Positions 4,605-16,084 of a DNA stretch of 23,327 bases are shown here, piece by piece; within the stretch, counting starts at the first letter, position 1, and each line of letters starts with the position of its first letter. The notes beneath the pieces are model-generated. The model ran no database searches. It was not told the DNA's origin and saw only the letters and a list, made by a program, of their open reading frames with translations. Both the position numbers and the translations under genes were made by a program. Location of the stretch: IMG/VR virus record IMGVR_UViG_3300029705_000088. The stretch is one strand, 5' to 3'. Origin of the DNA: a virus.

Positions 4605-4633
4605 TTGACAAATCGCTCAAAGTATGATATAAT
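4605..4633 (+). promoter_or_regulatory. Sigma70-type promoter (canonical class-A copy aaaaccccttgacaaatcgctcaaagtatgatataat)
   Basis: ttgaca at 4605-4610 and tataat at 4628-4633. Confidence 0.85.
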
Positions 4634-4675: not shown

Positions 4676-5380
4676 ATGAACACAGAAAAGATTGACCGCC
4701 GCAGACATTACATTATCGTGCTTGACACGGAAACCGCAAACACCTTCCGCGATGAAAGAGGACAGCTTGACACAAGTAGTACACTTGTGTATGACCTTGG
4801 GTGGGCGGTAACTGATAAGCATGGAAACATCTACCGCAAAAAGAGTTTTGTAAATTCTGATATTTTCTTCCATGAAGCTGAACTGATGAAGTCGGCATAC
4901 TACGCAAATAAAATCCCGCAGTATCTCGCAGACATTGAAGCGGGTAGGCGCATTGTGGCTAATACCTATCAAATGCGCTCGGCTCTGCTGAATGATATCG
5001 CAGATTTCGCAGTTGATACAATTTGCGCGCATAACGCCCGTTTTGACTACAACAGCCTAAACAGCACAGAGCGCTGGACTACAAAAAGCAAGTACCGCTA
5101 TTTTCTCCCTTATGGAATTACAATTTGGGACAGTATGAAGATGGCGCAAAGTGTAATCGGAAAGATGCCCACCTACCGCGCATTTTGTGAAGAACATGGT
5201 TATCTGACAAAAACTGGCAGACTTTCCATGACAGCGGAAAATCTTTACAGATTCATTTCCCGCAATAATGATTTTGTTGAAAATCATACAGGGCTTGAAG
5301 ATGTGGAAATTGAAGCGCAGATAATGGCGTACTGTTTCAGACAACACAAGGCAATGCAGAAAGAGTTATGGGGGAATTAA
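4676..5380 (+). CDS. DnaQ-like DEDDh 3'-5' exonuclease (234 aa)
   Basis: Exo I is IIVLDTETAN, Exo II is AHNARFDYNSL, and Exo III is HTGLEDVEIEAQ. The leader hairpin ccccc gataca ggggg lies at 4641-4656. Confidence 0.75.
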   Translation: MNTEKIDRRRHYIIVLDTETANTFRDERGQLDTSSTLVYDLGWAVTDKHGNIYRKKSFVNSDIFFHEAELMKSAYYANKIPQYLADIEAGRRIVANTYQMRSALLNDIADFAVDTICAHNARFDYNSLNSTERWTTKSKYRYFLPYGITIWDSMKMAQSVIGKMPTYRAFCEEHGYLTKTGRLSMTAENLYRFISRNNDFVENHTGLEDVEIEAQIMAYCFRQHKAMQKELWGN

Positions 5381-5429
5381 TCCCCCATGACTACCGCAAA
5401 AAAAACTTTAAGAAATTTCGCAAAACCCC

Positions 5430-5458
5430 TTGACAAAACCGCAAAAGTATGATATAAT
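5430..5458 (+). promoter_or_regulatory. Sigma70-type promoter driving the tRNA-like gene
   Basis: ttgaca at 5430-5435 and tataat at 5453-5458. Confidence 0.8.
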
Positions 5459-5498
5459 ATATATACAGAAGAGAGGAACAAATCCTCCCCGATAATAT

Positions 5499-5605
5499 GG
5501 CAGTGAGATAGAAGCGGCTCTATTTCCATAAAGATGGCTTGAGATACAACAAATGGAAACGTTCGCCATTGGAAAACGTAGGTTCAACTCCTACCACTGC
5601 CTCCA
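5499..5605 (+). tRNA. tRNA-like gene, non-canonical length (107 nt). It has a 7-bp acceptor stem, a canonical T-arm and 3' CCA, but the middle part does not fold into a standard anticodon arm.
   Basis: ggcagtg at 5499-5505 pairs with cactgcc at 5595-5601. The T-arm gtagg-ttcaact-cctac is at 5578-5594, the discriminator t is at 5602, and CCA is at 5603-5605. A D-arm-like atag aagcggct ctat is present. I could not place a 7-nt anticodon loop with U33, nor find a CUA anticodon. Confidence 0.45.
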
Positions 5606-5636
5606 AAAAATTTTTCAAAAACTTTTGCAAAACCCC

Positions 5637-5665
5637 TTGACAAATCGCTCAAAGTATGATATAAT
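5637..5665 (+). promoter_or_regulatory. Sigma70-type promoter (class-A copy)
   Basis: ttgaca at 5637-5642 and tataat at 5660-5665. Confidence 0.85.
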
Positions 5666-5749
5666 ATATATACCGAAGCAAGAGGGCACGACCTCCAATC
5701 GGTAAAATAAAAATAATGGGTAGCGACCTACGCTGAAAGGATTGATACC

Positions 5750-6139
5750 ATGGCTACTACTAACTCTACTTCCAAGAAGCTCACTAAGCGCGACCACTTC
5801 AACACCCTGCTCCAGCTCCCCGAAGTTGCCGCAAATCCCGCACTCGTTGATTTCATCAACAACGAACTTGACCTGCTGGCTCGCAAGAACAACAGCGACA
5901 ACAAGAAGCTCACTGAAAAGGACATCGCAAATCAGGGGCTTAAGGCGGCGATTCTTGAATTCGCAACCGCGAGCGGCGAACAGCACACTGTTACCGACTT
6001 CATCAAGAACGTGCCTGCGTGCGCTGGACTTTCTCCGCAGAAGATTACCGCACTGGTTCGCCAGATGGTAGAAGATGGCAAGCTTGAAAAGGTAATCGTA
6101 AAGCGCGTATCTTACTTCCGCATTCCGGAGGGGGTTTAA
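5750..6139 (+). CDS. Hypothetical protein (129 aa), cassette A gene 1, with a possible C-terminal winged helix
   Basis: An 80-nt structured leader ends ...gctgaaaggattgataccATG. Codon usage is rich in C-ending codons. It is a paralogue of 9851..10249. Confidence 0.8.
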   Translation: MATTNSTSKKLTKRDHFNTLLQLPEVAANPALVDFINNELDLLARKNNSDNKKLTEKDIANQGLKAAILEFATASGEQHTVTDFIKNVPACAGLSPQKITALVRQMVEDGKLEKVIVKRVSYFRIPEGV

Positions 6140-6170
6140 TCCCCCTCCCCCAAGAGGGGGGACGTAATCC

Positions 6171-6527
6171 ATGAGCGAACAGGAAAAAGCAATGCGGCGG
6201 CTCGGCTTTACAGATGAAGAAATCGCCGACGTAATGGACGCAGATAAGCGCATTGACAAGGGCGAAAAACTATTTGAGCAGACCGCCGAAGAAAAGAACG
6301 CAAGTAAAGAATTGCGGCGAGCACCGCGCAAAGTCGTTGACGCATACGGCAAAGCAAGCACCAAGGAACGCAAAAGCGACAACGACAAGCAAGCACTAAT
6401 CAAAGGCATTGAAATGGCAATTTTTGACAAAGTGGAAAATCTTACCATTATCAATCCCGAACGTGAAATGGAGTTTCTTTACAATGGTAGAAAATTCAAG
6501 TTGACTCTATCTGCTCCCCGAAAGTAA
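6171..6527 (+). CDS. Hypothetical protein (118 aa), cassette A gene 2
   Basis: ATG at 6171 after the stacked hairpins gaggggg/ccccctc and ccccc aagag ggggg. It is a paralogue of 10285..10692. Confidence 0.75.
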   Translation: MSEQEKAMRRLGFTDEEIADVMDADKRIDKGEKLFEQTAEEKNASKELRRAPRKVVDAYGKASTKERKSDNDKQALIKGIEMAIFDKVENLTIINPEREMEFLYNGRKFKLTLSAPRK

Positions 6528-6537
6528 ATATTTTCCA

Positions 6538-6570
6538 AAATGCATATTACAAATGTAATATGCATTTTTG
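6538..6570. promoter_or_regulatory. Perfect AT-rich palindrome (aaaatgcatattaca aa tgtaatatgcatttt), a candidate operator or terminator
   Basis: The 15-bp arms are exact reverse complements. Confidence 0.5.
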
Positions 6571-6589
6571 TTTATTTTGACGAAAATTT

Positions 6590-6790
6590 CCAGTTCACAA
6601 ATTGTTTACAAAATATACTTGATTTGTTCAAACGCGCGTCGCCGATGGTGGCGCGCGTTTTTTTTGTCAATAGGTAATGTATACAAATTTTCAGAAAATT
6701 TTTGGGCGTTTTTAGTCAATTCATACAAATCCCGCAATTATGAACATTTTGTAAACAATAAAGAAAACCTATTGACTTTTTTATTATAAT
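6590..6790. repeat. About 190-bp intergenic repeat element, copy 1 (tttacaaaatatacttgatttgttcaaac, a GC hairpin with T-run terminator at 6631-6668, then ...caaatcccgcaattatgaacattttgtaaa...)
   Basis: Close similarity to 11150..11340. The GC hairpin aaacgcgcg...cgcgcgttttttttt is visible. Confidence 0.8.
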
Positions 6791-6800
6791 ATGATATAAT
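6772..6800 (+). promoter_or_regulatory. Sigma70-type promoter
   Basis: ttgact at 6772-6777 and tgatataat ending at 6800, 17 bp apart. Confidence 0.8.
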
Positions 6801-6845
6801 ATATATACAGAAAACAAAGAGCCAACAGGCAAAGGAGATAAAACA

Positions 6846-7277
6846 ATGAAAAATATTTACGCTGTTAAGAATTACGTCCGCTTTGATGATGAATGGGAAG
6901 AAATTTTTGTGTGGGATTACAATTATGAGTATCTCACCCCCGAAGAAGCAAAAACCTTTGAAGATACTTTCCGCACGACCTGCCGCACGTTTGAGGAACT
7001 GCGCGAAGAGGTAGACAGATTCCCCGGTATCAAAGAAAATTATACCTTTTTCCGGCGCAGTCCTTACATCCGTGTGCAGGGTTCTGATTGGGATAGCTAT
7101 GGCAAATATTATGATGAAAAGCATTTCAAGAAGCCTATTAGCTTCAAGAAGGTCTGTAAAAGAGTTAATAACCTTTCCATTAATGATTTGATGAAAGTAT
7201 TAACTGCAGAAGATTTTGCAGACTGGTGGAAAGACCACGCAGGCGAAACGCAGTGCCCGTTCAAAAAGAATTCATAA
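6846..7277 (+). CDS. Hypothetical protein (143 aa)
   Basis: RBS aaaggagataaaacaATG. Confidence 0.8.
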   Translation: MKNIYAVKNYVRFDDEWEEIFVWDYNYEYLTPEEAKTFEDTFRTTCRTFEELREEVDRFPGIKENYTFFRRSPYIRVQGSDWDSYGKYYDEKHFKKPISFKKVCKRVNNLSINDLMKVLTAEDFADWWKDHAGETQCPFKKNS

Positions 7278-7296
7278 AATAAATACAAATTATACA

Positions 7297-7325
7297 TTGA
7301 CTTTCTCTCTTGGATGTGGTATAAT
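7297..7325 (+). promoter_or_regulatory. Sigma70-type promoter
   Basis: ttgact at 7297-7302 and tgtggtataat ending at 7325. Confidence 0.8.
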
Positions 7326-7367
7326 ATATATACCCTCCAAGAGAGAGGGTAGAAAGAGGTAAAACAA

Positions 7368-7604
7368 ATGAGAGTTGAGGACATGAGAAATAAGGACAAA
7401 GAGGTAACAATTAAAGACATTAAAGTCGGTGAATGCTTCATTGACTGTGATGGCGATTTAAATATGAAAATAAAAAATATTGAATCTTTTGATTATGAAT
7501 CTATTAATGCTGTAGTGCTTTTAACTGGTCAACTGTGGGCTTGTGATGAAGATAGCCCTATAACTCCAGTAAAAACGCACATTGTAATTGAATCGGAGGG
7601 ATAA
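7368..7604 (+). CDS. Hypothetical protein (78 aa)
   Basis: Leader hairpin ccctc caagaga gaggg at 7333-7349. RBS agaaagaggtaaaacaaATG. Confidence 0.7.
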   Translation: MRVEDMRNKDKEVTIKDIKVGECFIDCDGDLNMKIKNIESFDYESINAVVLLTGQLWACDEDSPITPVKTHIVIESEG

Positions 7605-7610
7605 AAAAAA

Positions 7611-8084
7611 ATGAATATTTTAATTTTTGCAATCGCTACTGTAATTAACGTATCACTTTCCACTATCCGCGCCATTACCACCATTAAAAGCGGTAAATGG
7701 CTGTCCGCTGTGATGAATGCGGTTTGTTATGGTTTCTATCCTCTGATTGTCATGCTGACCGCGCAAGGCACCGTAGGCATTTTGGTGAATATGGCAATTA
7801 CTGCCATCGCAAATTTCATCTGCGTATGGATTATTAAGTTTGTAGAGGAAAAGGCGCGTAAAGATAAACTCTGGAAGATTGAAGCATCTGTGTGTGAGCC
7901 TTACACCGAAAGCCTTTATAATGACTTAAGAGAAAATGGAATTTCTTGTAATTATATTCCCAACATTGGTAAATATACCATTTTCAACATTTACGCAGAA
8001 ACGCAAGCGCAAAGCCTTATTGTAAAAGGACTGCTTGAAGCCAACAAAGCAAAGTATTTTGTGAGCGAAACAAAAATTCTTTAA
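7611..8084 (+). CDS. Membrane protein, UPF0316/DUF2179-like (157 aa). It has N-terminal TM helices and a soluble C-terminal domain.
   Basis: RBS ggagggataaaaaaaaATG. The hydrophobic N-terminus carries a TIR motif, and the layout resembles the UPF0316 (YebE-type) family. This family assignment is recalled from memory and is not a verified similarity. Confidence 0.6.
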   Translation: MNILIFAIATVINVSLSTIRAITTIKSGKWLSAVMNAVCYGFYPLIVMLTAQGTVGILVNMAITAIANFICVWIIKFVEEKARKDKLWKIEASVCEPYTESLYNDLRENGISCNYIPNIGKYTIFNIYAETQAQSLIVKGLLEANKAKYFVSETKIL

Positions 8085-8103
8085 AAAACTTTCGCAAAAC
8101 CTA

Positions 8104-8132
8104 TTGACAAATTCAAAAAAGTGTGGTATAAT
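8104..8132 (+). promoter_or_regulatory. Sigma70-type promoter with TTTCGCAAAACC element
   Basis: ttgaca at 8104-8109 and tgtggtataat at 8122-8132. Confidence 0.8.
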
Positions 8133-8174
8133 ATATACATCCCCGATACAGGGGATAGAAAGGAATAAAACAAA

Positions 8175-8498
8175 ATGAAACTTGGTATTATTTTAGCAAA
8201 ACGTAAAATGGATGAAGAAGATACTGGACATCGCATCATTAAAATTGAAACAAACAATAATGATTTCAAACAGATTATTGATAAATCAATATATATAAAT
8301 AAACATTATAAAGAAACAGATGTTGTGACACGTAGAAAAACTTTTGATAAATTGTGTGATTTACTGGATGAAATTGTTAAACCATATTGTAAAGCAGATG
8401 AAGCAGTTATTTTTGCTTGTACAGCAGATGGTTATGCATTTATTTATGATGATGAAGATTTGGTAAATGAAACAATGAAATATATTTTTAATGAATAA
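8175..8498 (+). CDS. Hypothetical protein (107 aa)
   Basis: Leader hairpin atcccc gataca ggggat at 8139-8156. RBS aaaggaataaaacaaaATG. Confidence 0.7.
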   Translation: MKLGIILAKRKMDEEDTGHRIIKIETNNNDFKQIIDKSIYINKHYKETDVVTRRKTFDKLCDLLDEIVKPYCKADEAVIFACTADGYAFIYDDEDLVNETMKYIFNE

Positions 8499-8515
8499 AA
8501 ATTTTACTAAATCCC

Positions 8516-8544
8516 TTGACAAATAAGCAAAAGTGTGGTATAAT
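8516..8544 (+). promoter_or_regulatory. Sigma70-type promoter
   Basis: ttgaca at 8516-8521 and tgtggtataat ending at 8544. Confidence 0.8.
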
Positions 8545-8591
8545 AATAGTACCCCAATACAGGGGGCACTAAAAGAGAGAGGTAAAATAAA

Positions 8592-8849
8592 ATGACAAGA
8601 ATTGTAAAGCAAATGAAAATGGCAAAAATTTATGTTCCCGCTTGTTATGTTGATGGTGGACAAGGCTCTCGTGGCAACTGGACAAAAGAGACAATTTTTT
8701 ATACGGGTGCTTACACCAGCGAAACAGATATGCAGGAAAAATTTATTAAAGCAAAAGAAGAATGGGATAAAAAGAAAAAAGAATCGTGGGATACTTATTA
8801 TACAGAAGTAAAACTTATAGATTGGTGGGAAAATGTAGAAATTTTGTAA
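8592..8849 (+). CDS. Hypothetical protein (85 aa)
   Basis: Leader hairpin cccc aatacag ggggg. RBS agagaggtaaaataaaATG. Confidence 0.7.
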   Translation: MTRIVKQMKMAKIYVPACYVDGGQGSRGNWTKETIFYTGAYTSETDMQEKFIKAKEEWDKKKKESWDTYYTEVKLIDWWENVEIL

Positions 8850-8855
8850 AACCCC

Positions 8856-8884
8856 TTGACAAATCCGAAGAAATGTGATATAAT
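8856..8884 (+). promoter_or_regulatory. Sigma70-type promoter overlapping the end of the upstream CDS
   Basis: ttgaca at 8856-8861 and tgtgatataat ending at 8884. Confidence 0.8.
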
Positions 8885-8926
8885 AATAGTACCCCCAATA
8901 AAGGGGGGAGAAAGAGGTAAAATAAA

Positions 8927-9160
8927 ATGAAAGTTGCTGTTACACTTTATCGCACGATTGAAATGGATGTAAATGAAGAAGTTTTTGAAAGACTTCATGA
9001 AATCCATAAAGACCCTACCACTTTTGGAGAAGATGAAGATTATTCCGAAGCAAAAGAAATTATCACAAACAGACTGCTGGCACGCTGTGAACTTCATAAT
9101 GGTGAAGAAATTATCGGCGTGTATGCGGCGGAAGATGATATTCCGATTCTTGAATTTTAA
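8927..9160 (+). CDS. Hypothetical acidic small protein (77 aa)
   Basis: Leader hairpin ccccc aataaa gggggg. RBS agaaagaggtaaaataaaATG. Confidence 0.7.
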   Translation: MKVAVTLYRTIEMDVNEEVFERLHEIHKDPTTFGEDEDYSEAKEIITNRLLARCELHNGEEIIGVYAAEDDIPILEF

Positions 9161-9163
9161 TAA

Positions 9164-9200
9164 GGAGAGGGCGCAAGCCCCTCTCTTTCTTTTACTTTTG
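9164..9200 (+). terminator. Intrinsic terminator (ggagaggg cgcaag cccctctc followed by tttcttttactttt)
   Basis: GC stem followed by a T-run. Confidence 0.75.
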
Positions 9201-9472
9201 GCATTCATAATTTATTTACAAATTATTTATAAAAAACACTTGACTTTTGAGTCGCCCGCGGCCGGAGGTCACGGGCGAAATTTTGTCAAGAGATATCGTA
9301 TAAAAAAATTGTAAACATTTTATTAACAATCAAGTGAATTAGCCGTTTTCCCGTAATAAAAAATTAACAAATGAACATAGACTCGTTCACATATTATACC
9401 ATTACCAAAAATTGACAATCTGACTTGTTCTTGGATATTGAAAAAATTTTTTGAGAAATTTTGAAAAACCTC

Positions 9473-9501
9473 TTGACAAAAACGTGATTGTGTGGTATAA
9501 T
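9473..9501 (+). promoter_or_regulatory. Sigma70-type promoter with no ORF downstream (first of three tandem promoters)
   Basis: ttgaca at 9473-9478 and tgtggtataat at 9491-9501. Confidence 0.75.
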
Positions 9502-9579
9502 ATATATGTACCAAACAAAAGGATGCGCGGGGACGCCGAAAGCCACTCAAAAAAATTTGAAAAACTTTTCAAAAACCCC

Positions 9580-9608
9580 TTGACAAATCGCTCAAAGTAT
9601 GGTATAAT
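9580..9608 (+). promoter_or_regulatory. Sigma70-type promoter (class-A copy) driving an ORF-less structured transcript
   Basis: ttgaca at 9580-9585 and tataat at 9603-9608. Confidence 0.8.
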
Positions 9609-9614
9609 ATATAT

Positions 9615-9720
9615 GTCAGGGGCGAGGGTGAGTAAAACCTCGTAAAAAATCTCCTCATCAAGTGAAGTCCAAAATGCGATAAATTGACTTCAAATCTTGA
9701 TAGTATCGCAAAAAATTTTT
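9615..9720 (+). ncRNA. Candidate small non-coding RNA (about 105 nt): a 5' hairpin plus an H-type pseudoknot, ending in AAAAAATTTTT
   Basis: There is no ORF beyond a 10-codon one. The 5' hairpin is cgagg...cctcg (9623-9642). The pseudoknot has S1 at 9657-9669 paired with 9686-9701, and S2 tgcgata (9675-9681) paired with tatcgca (9704-9710), interleaved. Confidence 0.4.
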
Positions 9721-9741
9721 GAAAAACTTTTCAAAAACCCC

Positions 9742-9770
9742 TTGACAAATACCATAAAGTATGGTATAAT
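9742..9770 (+). promoter_or_regulatory. Sigma70-type promoter for cassette B
   Basis: ttgaca at 9742-9747 and tataat at 9765-9770. Confidence 0.8.
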
Positions 9771-9850
9771 ATATATACCGGGTGAGGGAAACCTACCACG
9801 GCAAACAAATTAAAAGGTTGGCAACCTAAACAGCTGAAAGGATTGATACC

Positions 9851-10249
9851 ATGGCTAACACTAATTCTACTCTCAACGCTACCGCAAAGAAGCTCACCAA
9901 GCGTGACCACTTCAACGCCCTCCTCGCTATCCCCTCTGTAGCATCTAACCCCACGCTCGTTGAATTCATTGAAAATGAGCTTGACCTACTGGCTCGTAAG
10001 AACGCTAAGCCGTCTGGCAAGCAGATGGAAAAGAAGGAAGCAAACGATGCGCTGAAGCAGGCAATGCTTGACTACCTCGCAAATGATGGCGGTCAGCACA
10101 CCGTTACTGACTTCATCAAGAATGTTCCCGAATGCGCTGGACTGTCCCAGCAGAGAATCACTGCGCTTGTCCGTCAGCTGGTAGAAGATGGCAAGATGGA
10201 AAAGGTGATTGAAAAGCGCGTTTCCTACTTCAAGCTGGCAGAGGTTTAA
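9851..10249 (+). CDS. Hypothetical protein (132 aa), cassette B gene 1, paralogue of 5750..6139
   Basis: The same structured leader ending gctgaaaggattgataccATG. About 60% identity to the cassette A protein by eye. C-ending codon bias. Confidence 0.8.
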   Translation: MANTNSTLNATAKKLTKRDHFNALLAIPSVASNPTLVEFIENELDLLARKNAKPSGKQMEKKEANDALKQAMLDYLANDGGQHTVTDFIKNVPECAGLSQQRITALVRQLVEDGKMEKVIEKRVSYFKLAEV

Positions 10250-10284
10250 TCCTCTGCCACGCCTAACCAAAAGAGGTGATGAAG

Positions 10285-10692
10285 ATGGAACTGACCCGAG
10301 CCGACAAAGCGCAAGTCAAGCGAATTCAAGAGGGCTTGCGCTGTACCGAAGAAGAAGCTCTTGAGGTTTTGTCCTATGACAAGGAAGTTGAGAAGGCTTC
10401 CGCTAATGACAGGCTGGCGTACGACCTTGACAAGGAGACAGAGAAGGAAGCGATGCGTATGGCTAACTGCCGCGACCGCAAGCCTACTGTTTACAATTTC
10501 TCCCAGCGTGAGCGCAAGGCAAATCCCACAAAGGGCGGAATAATCGCAGAATTGGCGGAGTTTTTGACAAAAAACAGTCAGTTTGCGACCGAAGATGTGG
10601 AAATTACCAACAAAGAACGGCAAATTGCGTTCAAAATTGGTGAAGATGCCTTTGAATTGACGCTTGTTCAGAAGCGAAAGCCCAAAAAGTAA
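10285..10692 (+). CDS. Hypothetical protein (about 136 aa), cassette B gene 2, paralogue of 6171..6527
   Basis: RBS aagagg. Candidate ATGs lie at 10279 and 10285; the track uses GTG at 10276. Confidence 0.7.
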   Translation: MELTRADKAQVKRIQEGLRCTEEEALEVLSYDKEVEKASANDRLAYDLDKETEKEAMRMANCRDRKPTVYNFSQRERKANPTKGGIIAELAEFLTKNSQFATEDVEITNKERQIAFKIGEDAFELTLVQKRKPKK

Positions 10693-10694
10693 AG

Positions 10695-10724
10695 AAAAGT
10701 GGGAATTTTTCCCACTTTTCACTT
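10695..10724 (+). terminator. Intrinsic terminator (aaaagtggga atttt tcccactttt)
   Basis: 10-bp stem followed by a T-run. Confidence 0.7.
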
Positions 10725-10749
10725 AAATTTTAGTCAAAAAGATGCAAAA

Positions 10750-11097
10750 ATGGCAGAAAAAGAGTTTCTTTATGTGGGTTTTTACCACGATACCGACAAA
10801 AATTTTGTTCTAAAGATTGGAACAACTAACGACCTAAAGCGCAGACAGGCAGAGCACACGCGCAATTATAGGAAAAGCCCTGAACACACAATGCCGCCAG
10901 ATGGCAAATTTACCTATTTATGGAAGCTGCCCCTTTCAAAATATAATACTCTGCGTTTTGAGGACAGAAACCGCCAAAAGTGGCAGGAAATGGGAATTGG
11001 TGAATATGTGCGGAACGACCGCTTTGTTCTCCATGAAATTCCACCACAGGTAGAAATTACCATCCGCAAAACTTATACAATCCCTCTACTGATGTAG
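10750..11097 (+). CDS. T5orf172/GIY-YIG-superfamily protein (115 aa), with no promoter of its own, inserted into copy B of the duplicated cassette
   Basis: FLYVGFYHDTDKNFVLKIGTTNDLKRRQAEH matches the GIY..YIG..R..H pattern and is paralogous to 1875..2240. The gene ends with TAG inside a terminator hairpin. Confidence 0.7.
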   Translation: MAEKEFLYVGFYHDTDKNFVLKIGTTNDLKRRQAEHTRNYRKSPEHTMPPDGKFTYLWKLPLSKYNTLRFEDRNRQKWQEMGIGEYVRNDRFVLHEIPPQVEITIRKTYTIPLLM

Positions 11098-14930: not shown

Positions 14931-14995
14931 TTTGAATTCTCCTTTTTCACTTCAGTTTTCCGCCCCTATCAACAGAAAAAAATTTTCTATAAGAA

Positions 14996-15033
14996 ATTTA
15001 TGTTCCAAGCGATAGCTGGAACATAAATTTCGC
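14996..15033. promoter_or_regulatory. Perfect palindrome (aaatttatgttcca agcgatagct tggaacataaattt) upstream of the minus-strand gene, a candidate operator
   Basis: 14-bp exact inverted arms. Confidence 0.5.
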
Positions 15034-15059
15034 TTTGTTAATTATTTAGTTTTTAGTAT

Positions 15060-15145
15060 TATTTAGATATAATATGAAAAATTACCCTTTTTTCCTTTTT
15101 ACTAACTATTAAAAATTGCCCTCACTAACTATTAAAAATTACCCT
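15060..15145. repeat. Three copies of the 24-bp motif (plus form ACTAACTATtAAAAATTrCCCTtt; minus form AAAGGGTAATTTTTAATAGTTAGT)
   Basis: Copies lie at about 15064-15084, 15091-15113 and 15124-15145. Confidence 0.75.
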
Positions 15146-15146
15146 T

Positions 15147-15830
15147 TTATTTCTTTTTACTATTATATACTAAAGATACATTTAATAATTTTTTCTTTGG
15201 TACTTTATTAATATAAATGGTTTCATAGTCAATTAATTTTGAATTATATAATAATTCTAAAGCGTGATTAATTATATCATAAGCTCTCTAATTATTTTTT
15301 ATATATATACCTATATGTTCTGCTATTTCATTCAAAGTAAAAATATAATTTTCCTACTATTTTAATCTTTTATTCTAATCTTCTTTATATTTATATTTCT
15401 AAACTAAATAAATATAAATTTTAATAATATGTTCCCGACAGTTATCCTATAAATATTCTAAAGTTGCTAAAGGAATATCTAAATAAATATTTTCTTTTAC
15501 TGGCAAATAATAATCTCCATTCTCTTTTTCCACTAAATACCCCTAATCTTTTAATGACTTCAAATGCGCTCTTAATGTTTTTGGACTTTTAATTTTTAAT
15601 TTTTCACACATATCTATTTGTTTTGGAATAATTGATTTCTTTACTACTGTTTCATATACTTCATAAGCCACACCCTTATCATCTTTTTTACAAACTTTTT
15701 CTGCTATTGAAATAGACTATAACAATCCATACAATTCACCATCTAATGTATTTGTATTTAAAAAAGTTTCATAATCTAATGTAGTATCCGCAGGAAACCT
15801 TTTTTCAATCTAATCTTTTGATTTTACCAC
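15147..15830 (-). CDS. Double winged-helix DNA-binding protein, RepA/replication-initiator-like (about 227 aa); the frame contains 8 in-frame TAG codons and no TAA or TGA
   Basis: RBS GGAGG, 7 nt, then GTG at 15830. The frame stays open to TAA at 15147-15149 apart from 8 TAGs. The translation carries two clean winged-helix motifs, MCEKLKIKSPKTLRAHLKSLKD*GYLVEKENGDYYLPV and FTLNEIAEHIGIYIKNN*RAYDIINHALELLYNSKLI. No ORF of at least 60 aa is called here in any frame. Confidence 0.6.
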
Positions 15831-15849
15831 AAGGAAACCTCCAATCTAA

Positions 15850-16065
15850 ATTTTACTAACTATGAAAAATTACCTTTCTAGTCGCACAATTATTTCAATT
15901 TCATTTATTTATATTTTACCTTTTTTGTCCAATATTTTTAGGTAATTTTACCTTTTTTAAAAGTAATATTCTAATAATATTTCTATTAAAAAATTAATAA
16001 AAATATTACTTACTAACTATGAAAAATTACCTAAAATTTTACTAACTATTAAATTTTACCCTTTT
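15850..16065. repeat. At least four further copies of the 24-bp motif family, between the divergent minus-strand operon and the plus-strand promoter
   Basis: ttttactaactatgaaaaattacctttc at 15851-15878, weaker copies at 15905-15960, then copies at 16007-16030 and 16035-16062. Confidence 0.75.
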
Positions 16066-16084
16066 CTAATTAACAATAACTCTA

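Follow-up and report, generated by a model that had tools for sequence, protein, structure and literature searches.

Three tandem strong promoters without intervening genes precede a winged-helix gene cassette in an uncultured phage and probably form a multi-promoter leader with base-paired RNA 5' ends

Three strong promoters in tandem (P1, P2 and P3) precede a small gene cassette in the phage DNA analyzed here (the window, i.e., the whole stretch of 23,327 nucleotides), and this stack is best read as a set of tandem early promoters combined with 5' stabilisers. The new part is a covarying complementarity between the 5' end of the transcript of an upstream promoter and the -35 region of the next promoter, of which no earlier description is known to us. 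The stack probably serves as a multi-promoter leader that boosts the early cassette at positions 9851-10692, with modules between the promoters that are non-coding, variable between strains and occluded at their 5' end. Amplification of the downstream cassette had been named as a fallback in the initial annotation of this region, and it is supported by the presence of such stacks in dozens of relatives, by the lack of a terminator and by the restriction of ORF-less promoters to such sites.

In a scan of positions 8500-11000, P1, P2 and P3 were each found to match TTGACA-17-TATAAT at all 12 positions, which is far beyond chance. The initial annotation had placed consecutive strong promoters at 9473, 9580 and 9742, and all three are exact and lie on the same (plus) strand. 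Their -35 hexamers start 107 and 162 nt apart, and in front of each promoter lie phased A and T tracts that finish with CCTC or CCCC. The region thus has the composition of a tandem early promoter cluster, with at least two consensus promoters in one orientation within a few hundred bp and neither a gene nor a terminator between them, from which read-through would follow. The coordinates of all features are collected in Table 1.

Table 1. Features of the promoter stack, its paralog and the downstream cassette in the window, and tRNA genes in related loci (L numbers).
Feature	Coordinates	Strand	Remarks
A/T-tract upstream element of P1	~9440-9472	+	
Promoter P1	9473-9501	+	TTGACA-17-TGgTATAAT, consensus 12/12, TG extension
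Unit 1 body, non-coding leader module	9508-9548	+	No SD-led ORF; z = 0.05
Promoter P2 (middle)	9580-9608	+	Consensus 12/12, TG extension
P2 transcript 5' end GUCAGGGG, predicted 5' arm of closing helix	9615-9622	+	Homolog of (U)GUCAAGRGG
Local 5' hairpin, CGAGG ... CCUCG	9623-9642	+	Resembles 5' hairpin of P3 leader
S1 hairpin, two 6-bp segments and internal loop	9657-9701 (9657-9669 with 9686-9701)	+	Specific to this strain
Candidate S2, TGCGATA with TATCGCA	9675-9681 with 9704-9710	+	Exact 7-nt complement; unsupported
P3 upstream element, palindromic A/T tract (TTTTTGAAAAACTTTTCAAAAA) and CCCC flank	9711-9741	+	Not a terminator
Partner arm CCCUUGAC in P3 -35 region	9739-9746	+	
Promoter P3, cassette-proximal	9742-9770	+	Consensus 12/12, TG extension
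Cassette mRNA leader, 5'-terminal hairpin and SD (GAAAGGA)	9777-9850	+	Kept in close relatives
132-aa protein gene, C-terminal winged-helix domain	9851-10249	+	Served by the stack
137-aa partner gene	10279-10692	+	Next to winged-helix gene in relatives too
Intrinsic terminator after partner gene	10694-10720		
Paralogous stack: promoter 5430, ORF-less unit, promoter 5637	5430-5665	+	Precedes cassette 5750-6527
tRNA-like element	5499-5605		Inside ORF-less unit 5430-5637
tRNA genes downstream of winged-helix gene	L019 2927-3002, L038 2046-2121, L039 3213-3368, L044 2136-2211		
tRNA genes downstream of winged-helix gene	L045 2916-2992, L050 2588-2661, L064 1307-1379		

A gene follows the last promoter only, as annotated initially: P3 leads to the ATG at 9851, and no ORF of at least 20 aa with an SD-like sequence could be identified after P1 or P2. 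The middle transcript had been described as having no plausible ORF, only 10 codons, and this agrees with the sequence, since the 10-codon ORF (9613-9645, MSGARVSKTS) has no SD and starts at or before the likely transcription start. Coding by this ORF was also rejected from the related locus L013, where an indel shifts the frame while the nucleotides stay conserved. Coding from an ATG at 9523 was considered for unit 1 and rejected as well. This codon abuts its SD-like run, and it is replaced by ACG in five contigs (L093 and L095-98), which indicates that unit 1 is non-coding.

Within 9473-9790 no terminator-like site was found; such sites instead follow the neighboring genes, at 9162-9188 and 10694-10720. 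As no terminator separates P1, P2 and P3, RNA started at P1 or P2 should continue into the cassette. The middle RNA had been proposed to end in AAAAAATTTTT. This sequence is indeed present, but it does not define an end, since its A6T5 run belongs to the upstream element of P3 and is not a terminator. The middle unit thus has its own promoter, as a stand-alone small RNA gene would, but neither an intrinsic terminator nor a defined 3' end. A reading of the TGTCAAG at +1 as an antisense -35 hexamer was discarded, because in our reading the minus strand offers no -10 hexamer at a workable spacing (TTTGAG at 17 bp).

A pattern search identified 24 near-consensus sigma-A promoters in the 23-kb window, all on the plus strand. 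For 21 of these, an SD and an ORF follow 35-110 nt past the start site. The only ORF-less promoters are those at 5430, 9473 and 9580, and each precedes one of the two paralogous cassettes (5750-6527 and 9851-10692), whose first proteins are 67-68% identical to each other. Both cassettes are located in stretches of 43-47% G+C, compared with ~31-38% in most of the remaining window. The AlphaFold (AF2) model of the 132-aa protein has a mean pLDDT of 83.7, and Foldseek matched its C-terminal ~65 residues to winged-helix domains (DsrD, Z-alpha, ArsR-like) with a best E-value of ~1e-2; 292 homologs were found at E <= 1e-10. In the related locus L002 the winged-helix gene is present three times (1836-2600, from 2998 onwards and from 5631 onwards), each copy with its own stack. 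The proteins of the window are mostly unannotated, and megablast and blastn searches with 8500-11000 gave no DNA match among deposited phages. An exonuclease-like protein (4676-5380) is 40% identical to proteins of Enterococcus phages of 134-142 kb, its closest homologs with a name. Altogether, the window looks like an early region of the host-takeover type from a large Firmicute phage.

Close relatives were defined as contigs whose cassette protein is 88-100% identical to the 132-aa protein. P1 is kept in all of them, and what follows P1 occurs in three architectures. The order P1, body 1, P2, body 2, P3 is found in the window and in one identical JGI contig (Ga0187908_10011618, sample 3300018495). 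In ten contigs from several samples P1 and body 1 are directly followed by P3 and the entire 162-nt middle unit is absent, and in five contigs an unrelated 91-nt body follows P1 in place of body 1 (L087-L092). The middle unit (9580-9741), including S1 and S2, is thus lacking in strains with an 88-99% identical cassette protein, which shows that it is dispensable at the strain level. The P2 spacer is identical to the spacer of the last promoter in L083-L085, which are strains without the middle unit, as would be expected if units are gained or lost when promoter repeats recombine. The middle body would most simply be a recent recombinational insert.

Protein-based searches yielded two IMG/VR contigs and 62 metagenome loci with 30-59% protein identity. 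In more than 60 distant relatives a stack of two to four (rarely five) consensus promoters stands in front of the same gene family, and nearly all loci with enough upstream sequence have a stack with ORF-less stretches between the promoters. The stack-bearing relatives are gut and rumen phages. The stacked promoters are mostly 86-170 nt apart; AT-rich relatives have spacings of 86-93 nt, which is near the minimum for a promoter with its upstream element and leaves almost no body. Upstream of the winged-helix family lie 71 of the 103 detected stacks, a count that is biased towards this gene because the loci were fetched around it. The unit bodies have a G+C content of ~50% in a genome of ~33%. 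Taken together, they show no more structure than shuffled sequences (mean z = -0.38, median 0.06, n = 38), and no enriched k-mer is shared between them beyond the 5' end, so that a common motif or unusual structure of the bodies was dismissed. Some body families recur in phages with differing flanking leaders, e.g., in L018, L020, L043 and L053. In several relatives ordinary tRNA genes (Lys-UUU, Glu-UUC, Asn-GUU) are located directly 3' of the winged-helix gene; these share the stack-driven operon, and the stacks there should thus drive tRNAs too. Ordinary tRNAs were also all that Rfam identified in 20 related loci.

Most ORF-less units in the relatives start at the predicted transcription start site with (T/A)GTCAAGRGG. 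This motif is the reverse complement of the -35 hexamer with 3-5 nt upstream of it (CCYC-TTGACA), and over its first 8-14 nt, which begin (U)GUCAAGRGG, the RNA complements the next promoter's -35 hexamer together with the flank upstream of it. When 34 units were placed in register, 82% of the cells of a 12-pair helix were paired. Pair 8-25 covaried, being A-U in 20 units, G-C in 10, G-U in 2 and another combination in 2, and the observed pairing or covariation score was reached by none of 500 shuffles. The four flank positions were paired in 93% of the cells with the next promoter compared to 72% with the unit's own, and where the two flanks differ, the next one was paired in 92% and the own one in 64%. 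Examples are GAAG with CTTC in L030, GAGA with TCTC in L068 and a perfect 14-bp helix in L027. Among the departures from complementarity G-U wobbles outnumber A-C mismatches, which fits pairing in the plus-strand RNA and not a site in duplex DNA or a protein site. In a few units the motif is lacking, and a dedicated partner is located at the body's end instead, e.g., in L057, L054, L037 and L033.

In the window, positions 9615-9622 and 9739-9746 are paired in both the minimum free energy (MFE) structure and the centroid of the read-through RNA 9615-9850, and none of 200 shuffles of this RNA folds as well (z = -4.5). The closing helix encloses the 5' hairpin, S1 and the hairpin of the upstream element. 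Most relatives have a stronger helix; here an A is missing from the motif (GUCAGGGG in place of GUCAAGGGG), which leaves 8 bp, one of them a G-U. Unit 1, which starts from the promoter at 9473, has no GUCAAG motif. There, GUACCA at 9508-9513 complements UGGUAU at 9600-9605 in the extended -10 region of P2, and this pairing is present in the MFE structure of 9508-9850.

In Bacillus subtilis, mRNA is stabilised when its 5' end is occluded or when it carries a strong SD that lacks a start codon (PMC3997798). The 5' mRNA stabilisers of Bacillus comprise 5'-terminal stem-loops, the SP82 polypurine sequence and the STAB-SD of cryIIIA (PMC3997798, where Hue et al., 1995 is cited for such determinants). 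The predicted P2 transcript, with a helix from its first nucleotide and a GRGG-rich start, has the features of such a Firmicute stabiliser, and the modules resemble the Bacillus elements in having a base-paired 5' end, a purine-rich SD-like run (AAGAGGGAG) without a start codon, or both. From this likeness we infer protection of the longer transcripts. In contrast to the Bacillus stabilisers the pairing is long-range: the partner strand, copied from the downstream -35 region, lies 60-140 nt away, and the helix encloses the whole module. Stabilisation of the downstream RNA by the closing helix is accordingly proposed here by analogy.

In the multi-promoter leader proposed here, all three promoters would be read by host RNA polymerase with its primary sigma factor. 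RNA started at P1 and P2 would run past the next promoter into the cassette and add to its mRNA. The stretches between the promoters would be non-coding leader modules that are gained, lost and swapped among strains, most simply by recombination between the promoter repeats of ~90 bp, and the middle module with S1 and S2 would be one strain-specific insert. The RNA 5' end of each module would be base-paired, in most relatives with the transcribed -35 hexamer and flank of the next promoter, and the closing helix together with the purine-rich SD-like start would occlude the 5' end and, in a Firmicute host, shield the read-through RNA against decay that depends on the 5' end. Promoter use, read-through and RNA half-life in this model are deduced from sequence. 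Simple amplification leaves unexplained why bodies of 40-200 nt with ~50% G+C persist in many relatives. A further point against the model is that one body in the window is a conserved tRNA-like RNA.

The initial annotation had instead favored a regulatory or decoy RNA started from P2, folded into a 5' hairpin and an H-type pseudoknot of S1 and S2. The 5' hairpin and the complementarities of S1 and S2 are all exact, and S1 is the main feature of the predicted ensemble, its pairs having probabilities of 0.86-0.99 (helix as defined, -8.9 kcal/mol). Two interleaved helices can thus be drawn, as an H-type pseudoknot demands. A 7-nt complement between loop and flank like that of S2 occurs in 1.8% of shuffles, and both S2 arms are unpaired in the MFE structure of the read-through RNA. 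In nested folding, the pairing probability of S2 is ~0.01. The full pseudoknot looks strained, since loop 3 consists of 2 nt (9702-9703) and would have to span the 12-13 bp of S1. By our judgement of the geometry, which is not a computation, the complete H-type fold is sterically implausible, and only a truncated S1 of 6 bp with its lower half open could coexist with S2. The 108-nt P2 transcript is marginally unusual in stability and not beyond chance (z = -1.83; 12 of 200 shuffles fold as well), and a z of about -2 is unremarkable among the 38 units.

Conservation of S1 and S2 in related phages and an Rfam match had been named as checks of the pseudoknot, its refutation being a lack of conservation of the paired positions. 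Neither conservation nor covariation of the two helices was observed in the relatives, as the unit is absent from the closest strains and the only other copy found is identical and offers no sequence variants of S1 or S2. The exact 35-nt S1/S2 pattern has no match in IMG/VR, and a degenerate scan of IMG/VR for the 5' motif gave 13 matches, of which one contig is a true relative. No homolog of the middle body was found among ~100 related loci fetched; L013, the only relative with a similar unit start, shares the first ~17 nt alone. At gathering thresholds the window has no Rfam match, and 9440-9860 gave only noise at E <= 10 (at most 18 bits). No complementarity of the unit bodies to other parts of the window exceeded chance. 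A discrete trans-acting regulator or decoy RNA of ~100 nt has in its favor the perfect P2, the stable predicted S1, the exact S2 with its two arms free in the MFE structure, and the occurrence on at least 24 contigs of the 132-aa cassette protein that goes with this variant. A conserved pseudoknotted small RNA is nevertheless unsupported given the missing unit in the nearest strains, the lack of homologs and Rfam matches and the apparently strained fold. Together with the lack of a terminator, this makes such an RNA improbable.

A different role for the bodies would be that of slots for accessory non-coding RNAs, closed by the helix and excised by host RNases, e.g., as decoy or anti-defence RNAs, with the middle unit here as one such payload. 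This is unlikely, though it would account for the element inside the ORF-less unit of the paralogous stack. This element has a 7-bp acceptor stem, a canonical T arm, an encoded CCA and a 41-nt insert in the anticodon loop, and its Rfam tRNA score is 29.4 bits (gathering threshold 29). An Rfam scan of 5300-9900 at E <= 10 matched it at 5499-5602 and otherwise gave noise, and ARAGORN identified no tRNA in the window. In the related strain L100 the T stem carries a compensatory change, from GTAGG/CCTAC to GTGGG/CCCAC. The paralogous unit thus holds a conserved tRNA-like RNA, so some modules do carry a structured RNA, with a function of their own. The recurrence of body families across differing leaders, the G+C content of the bodies and the tRNA genes in the stack-driven operon of several relatives also speak for payloads. 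Most bodies, however, are not more structured than shuffled sequences and share no motif beyond the 5' end, many relatives have no body at all, and bodies come and go between near-identical strains. Rather unlikely, and a bolder version of the same idea, is that the stacks are arrays of exchangeable helix-closed RNA modules that are cut to discrete stem-loop RNAs for host takeover or counter-defence, among them the tRNA-like element at 5499-5605 and the S1-bearing RNA at 9615-9746; phages would then have a previously undescribed means of packaging small RNAs and of exchanging them through recombination from promoter to promoter. A role at the DNA level is another option for the inverted repeat TGTCAAGRGG ... 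CCYCTTGACA, which might provide paired binding sites for a phage regulator, possibly the winged-helix protein itself, or form part of an origin of transcription-primed replication. The cassette encodes a winged-helix protein, the motif at +1 is at a typical operator position, and to our knowledge ORF-less promoters mark origins in T7 and T4. This is very improbable, since the arms are 60-140 bp apart at a variable distance, the flanks differ between units of one phage yet stay complementary, the departures are mostly G-U rather than A-C, and no iterons are present in 9473-9790, the iteron-like repeats of the window being located at 15100-16060. Titration of host polymerase by the stack as a sink for sigma factor, an option of the initial annotation, or for RNA polymerase is exceedingly improbable: all three promoters are perfect and carry upstream elements, but they are only 3 of ~24 equivalent promoters in 23 kb and would add little, and the link of the stacks to a single gene family in the relatives is not what a generic sink predicts.

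Tandem early promoters are textbook knowledge, and the stack in itself is unsurprising. In T7 and T3 the host-polymerase promoters A1, A2 and A3 feed the first early genes, and the stack in the window likewise has three strong promoters of the same orientation in ~300 bp with no gene between them. Unlike in T7, stacks of this type precede a particular gene family, occur two or three times per genome and vary in promoter number between strains; we know of no description of complementarity between the transcript start and the next -35 region for T7. The dense, very strong sigma-A early promoters, each with one or a few small genes and strong ribosome-binding sites, recall the host-takeover module of Bacillus phage SPO1 and other Herelleviridae, from which the window differs in showing no DNA similarity to any deposited phage and in its mostly unannotated proteins. 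No description of ORF-less promoter stacks was found in the SPO1/Herelleviridae literature searched. Tandem promoters P1 and P2 of rrn drive the rRNA and tRNA operons of bacteria, and with these the stack shares upstream elements, a predicted very high output and, in several relatives, tRNA genes in the operon, whereas its main product is a small protein-coding cassette in a phage early region.

A group of uncultured gut and rumen phages thus reserves promoter stacks for one winged-helix gene family, which suggests that the phage needs this protein rapidly and in large amounts and recommends it for functional studies. Pairing of the 5' end with the next -35 region would be a simple rule by which the 5' end of every read-through RNA is protected. 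Should this rule hold, tandem promoters for Firmicute expression systems could be designed by it, and there would be reason for caution in calling the spacers between promoters small RNA genes.

Several further observations concern the surroundings of the stack and the other promoters of the window. In related strain L094 the tRNA-like unit appears to be missing, in an upstream sequence of only ~150 nt. The upstream A/T-tract elements are palindromic (TTTTTGAAAAACTTTTCAAAAA) at 9716-9737 and at other promoters of the window, as well as in L013, L030, L053 and L069. Many promoter spacers form palindromes with the extended -10 region, of the type CCACA-N3-TGTGG or ATACCATA-AAG-TATGGTAT, and these spacer/-10 palindromes would give hairpins in read-through RNA. 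The leaders of the promoters at 4605, 7297, 8104, 8516, 8856 and 11815 start at nucleotide 1-2 with a GC-rich hairpin of the type ACCCCCGAUACAGGGGGU, directly followed by an SD, and this phage appears to use the combination repeatedly as a 5' stabiliser.

Just upstream of the stack, at 9230-9290, a conserved module was observed in which a GC-rich hairpin adjoins TTTGTCAAGAG; the same module is present in L053, L075, L034, L026, L040, L054 and L063. In several relatives its minus strand carries a perfect promoter, CCTCTTGACA-N17-TGTGGTATAAT, that points away from the stack, with TGCACAAA boxes nearby. Finally, the region 14940-16080 is poor in ORFs, has a G+C content of ~22% and a strongly negative GC skew, and separates two promoter sub-types. 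A 21-nt repeat, TACTAACTATNAAAAATTACC, is found five times (at 15100, 15123, 15854, 16011 and 16040; 0.03 expected by chance), and the region might mark a module boundary or serve as an origin or terminus.
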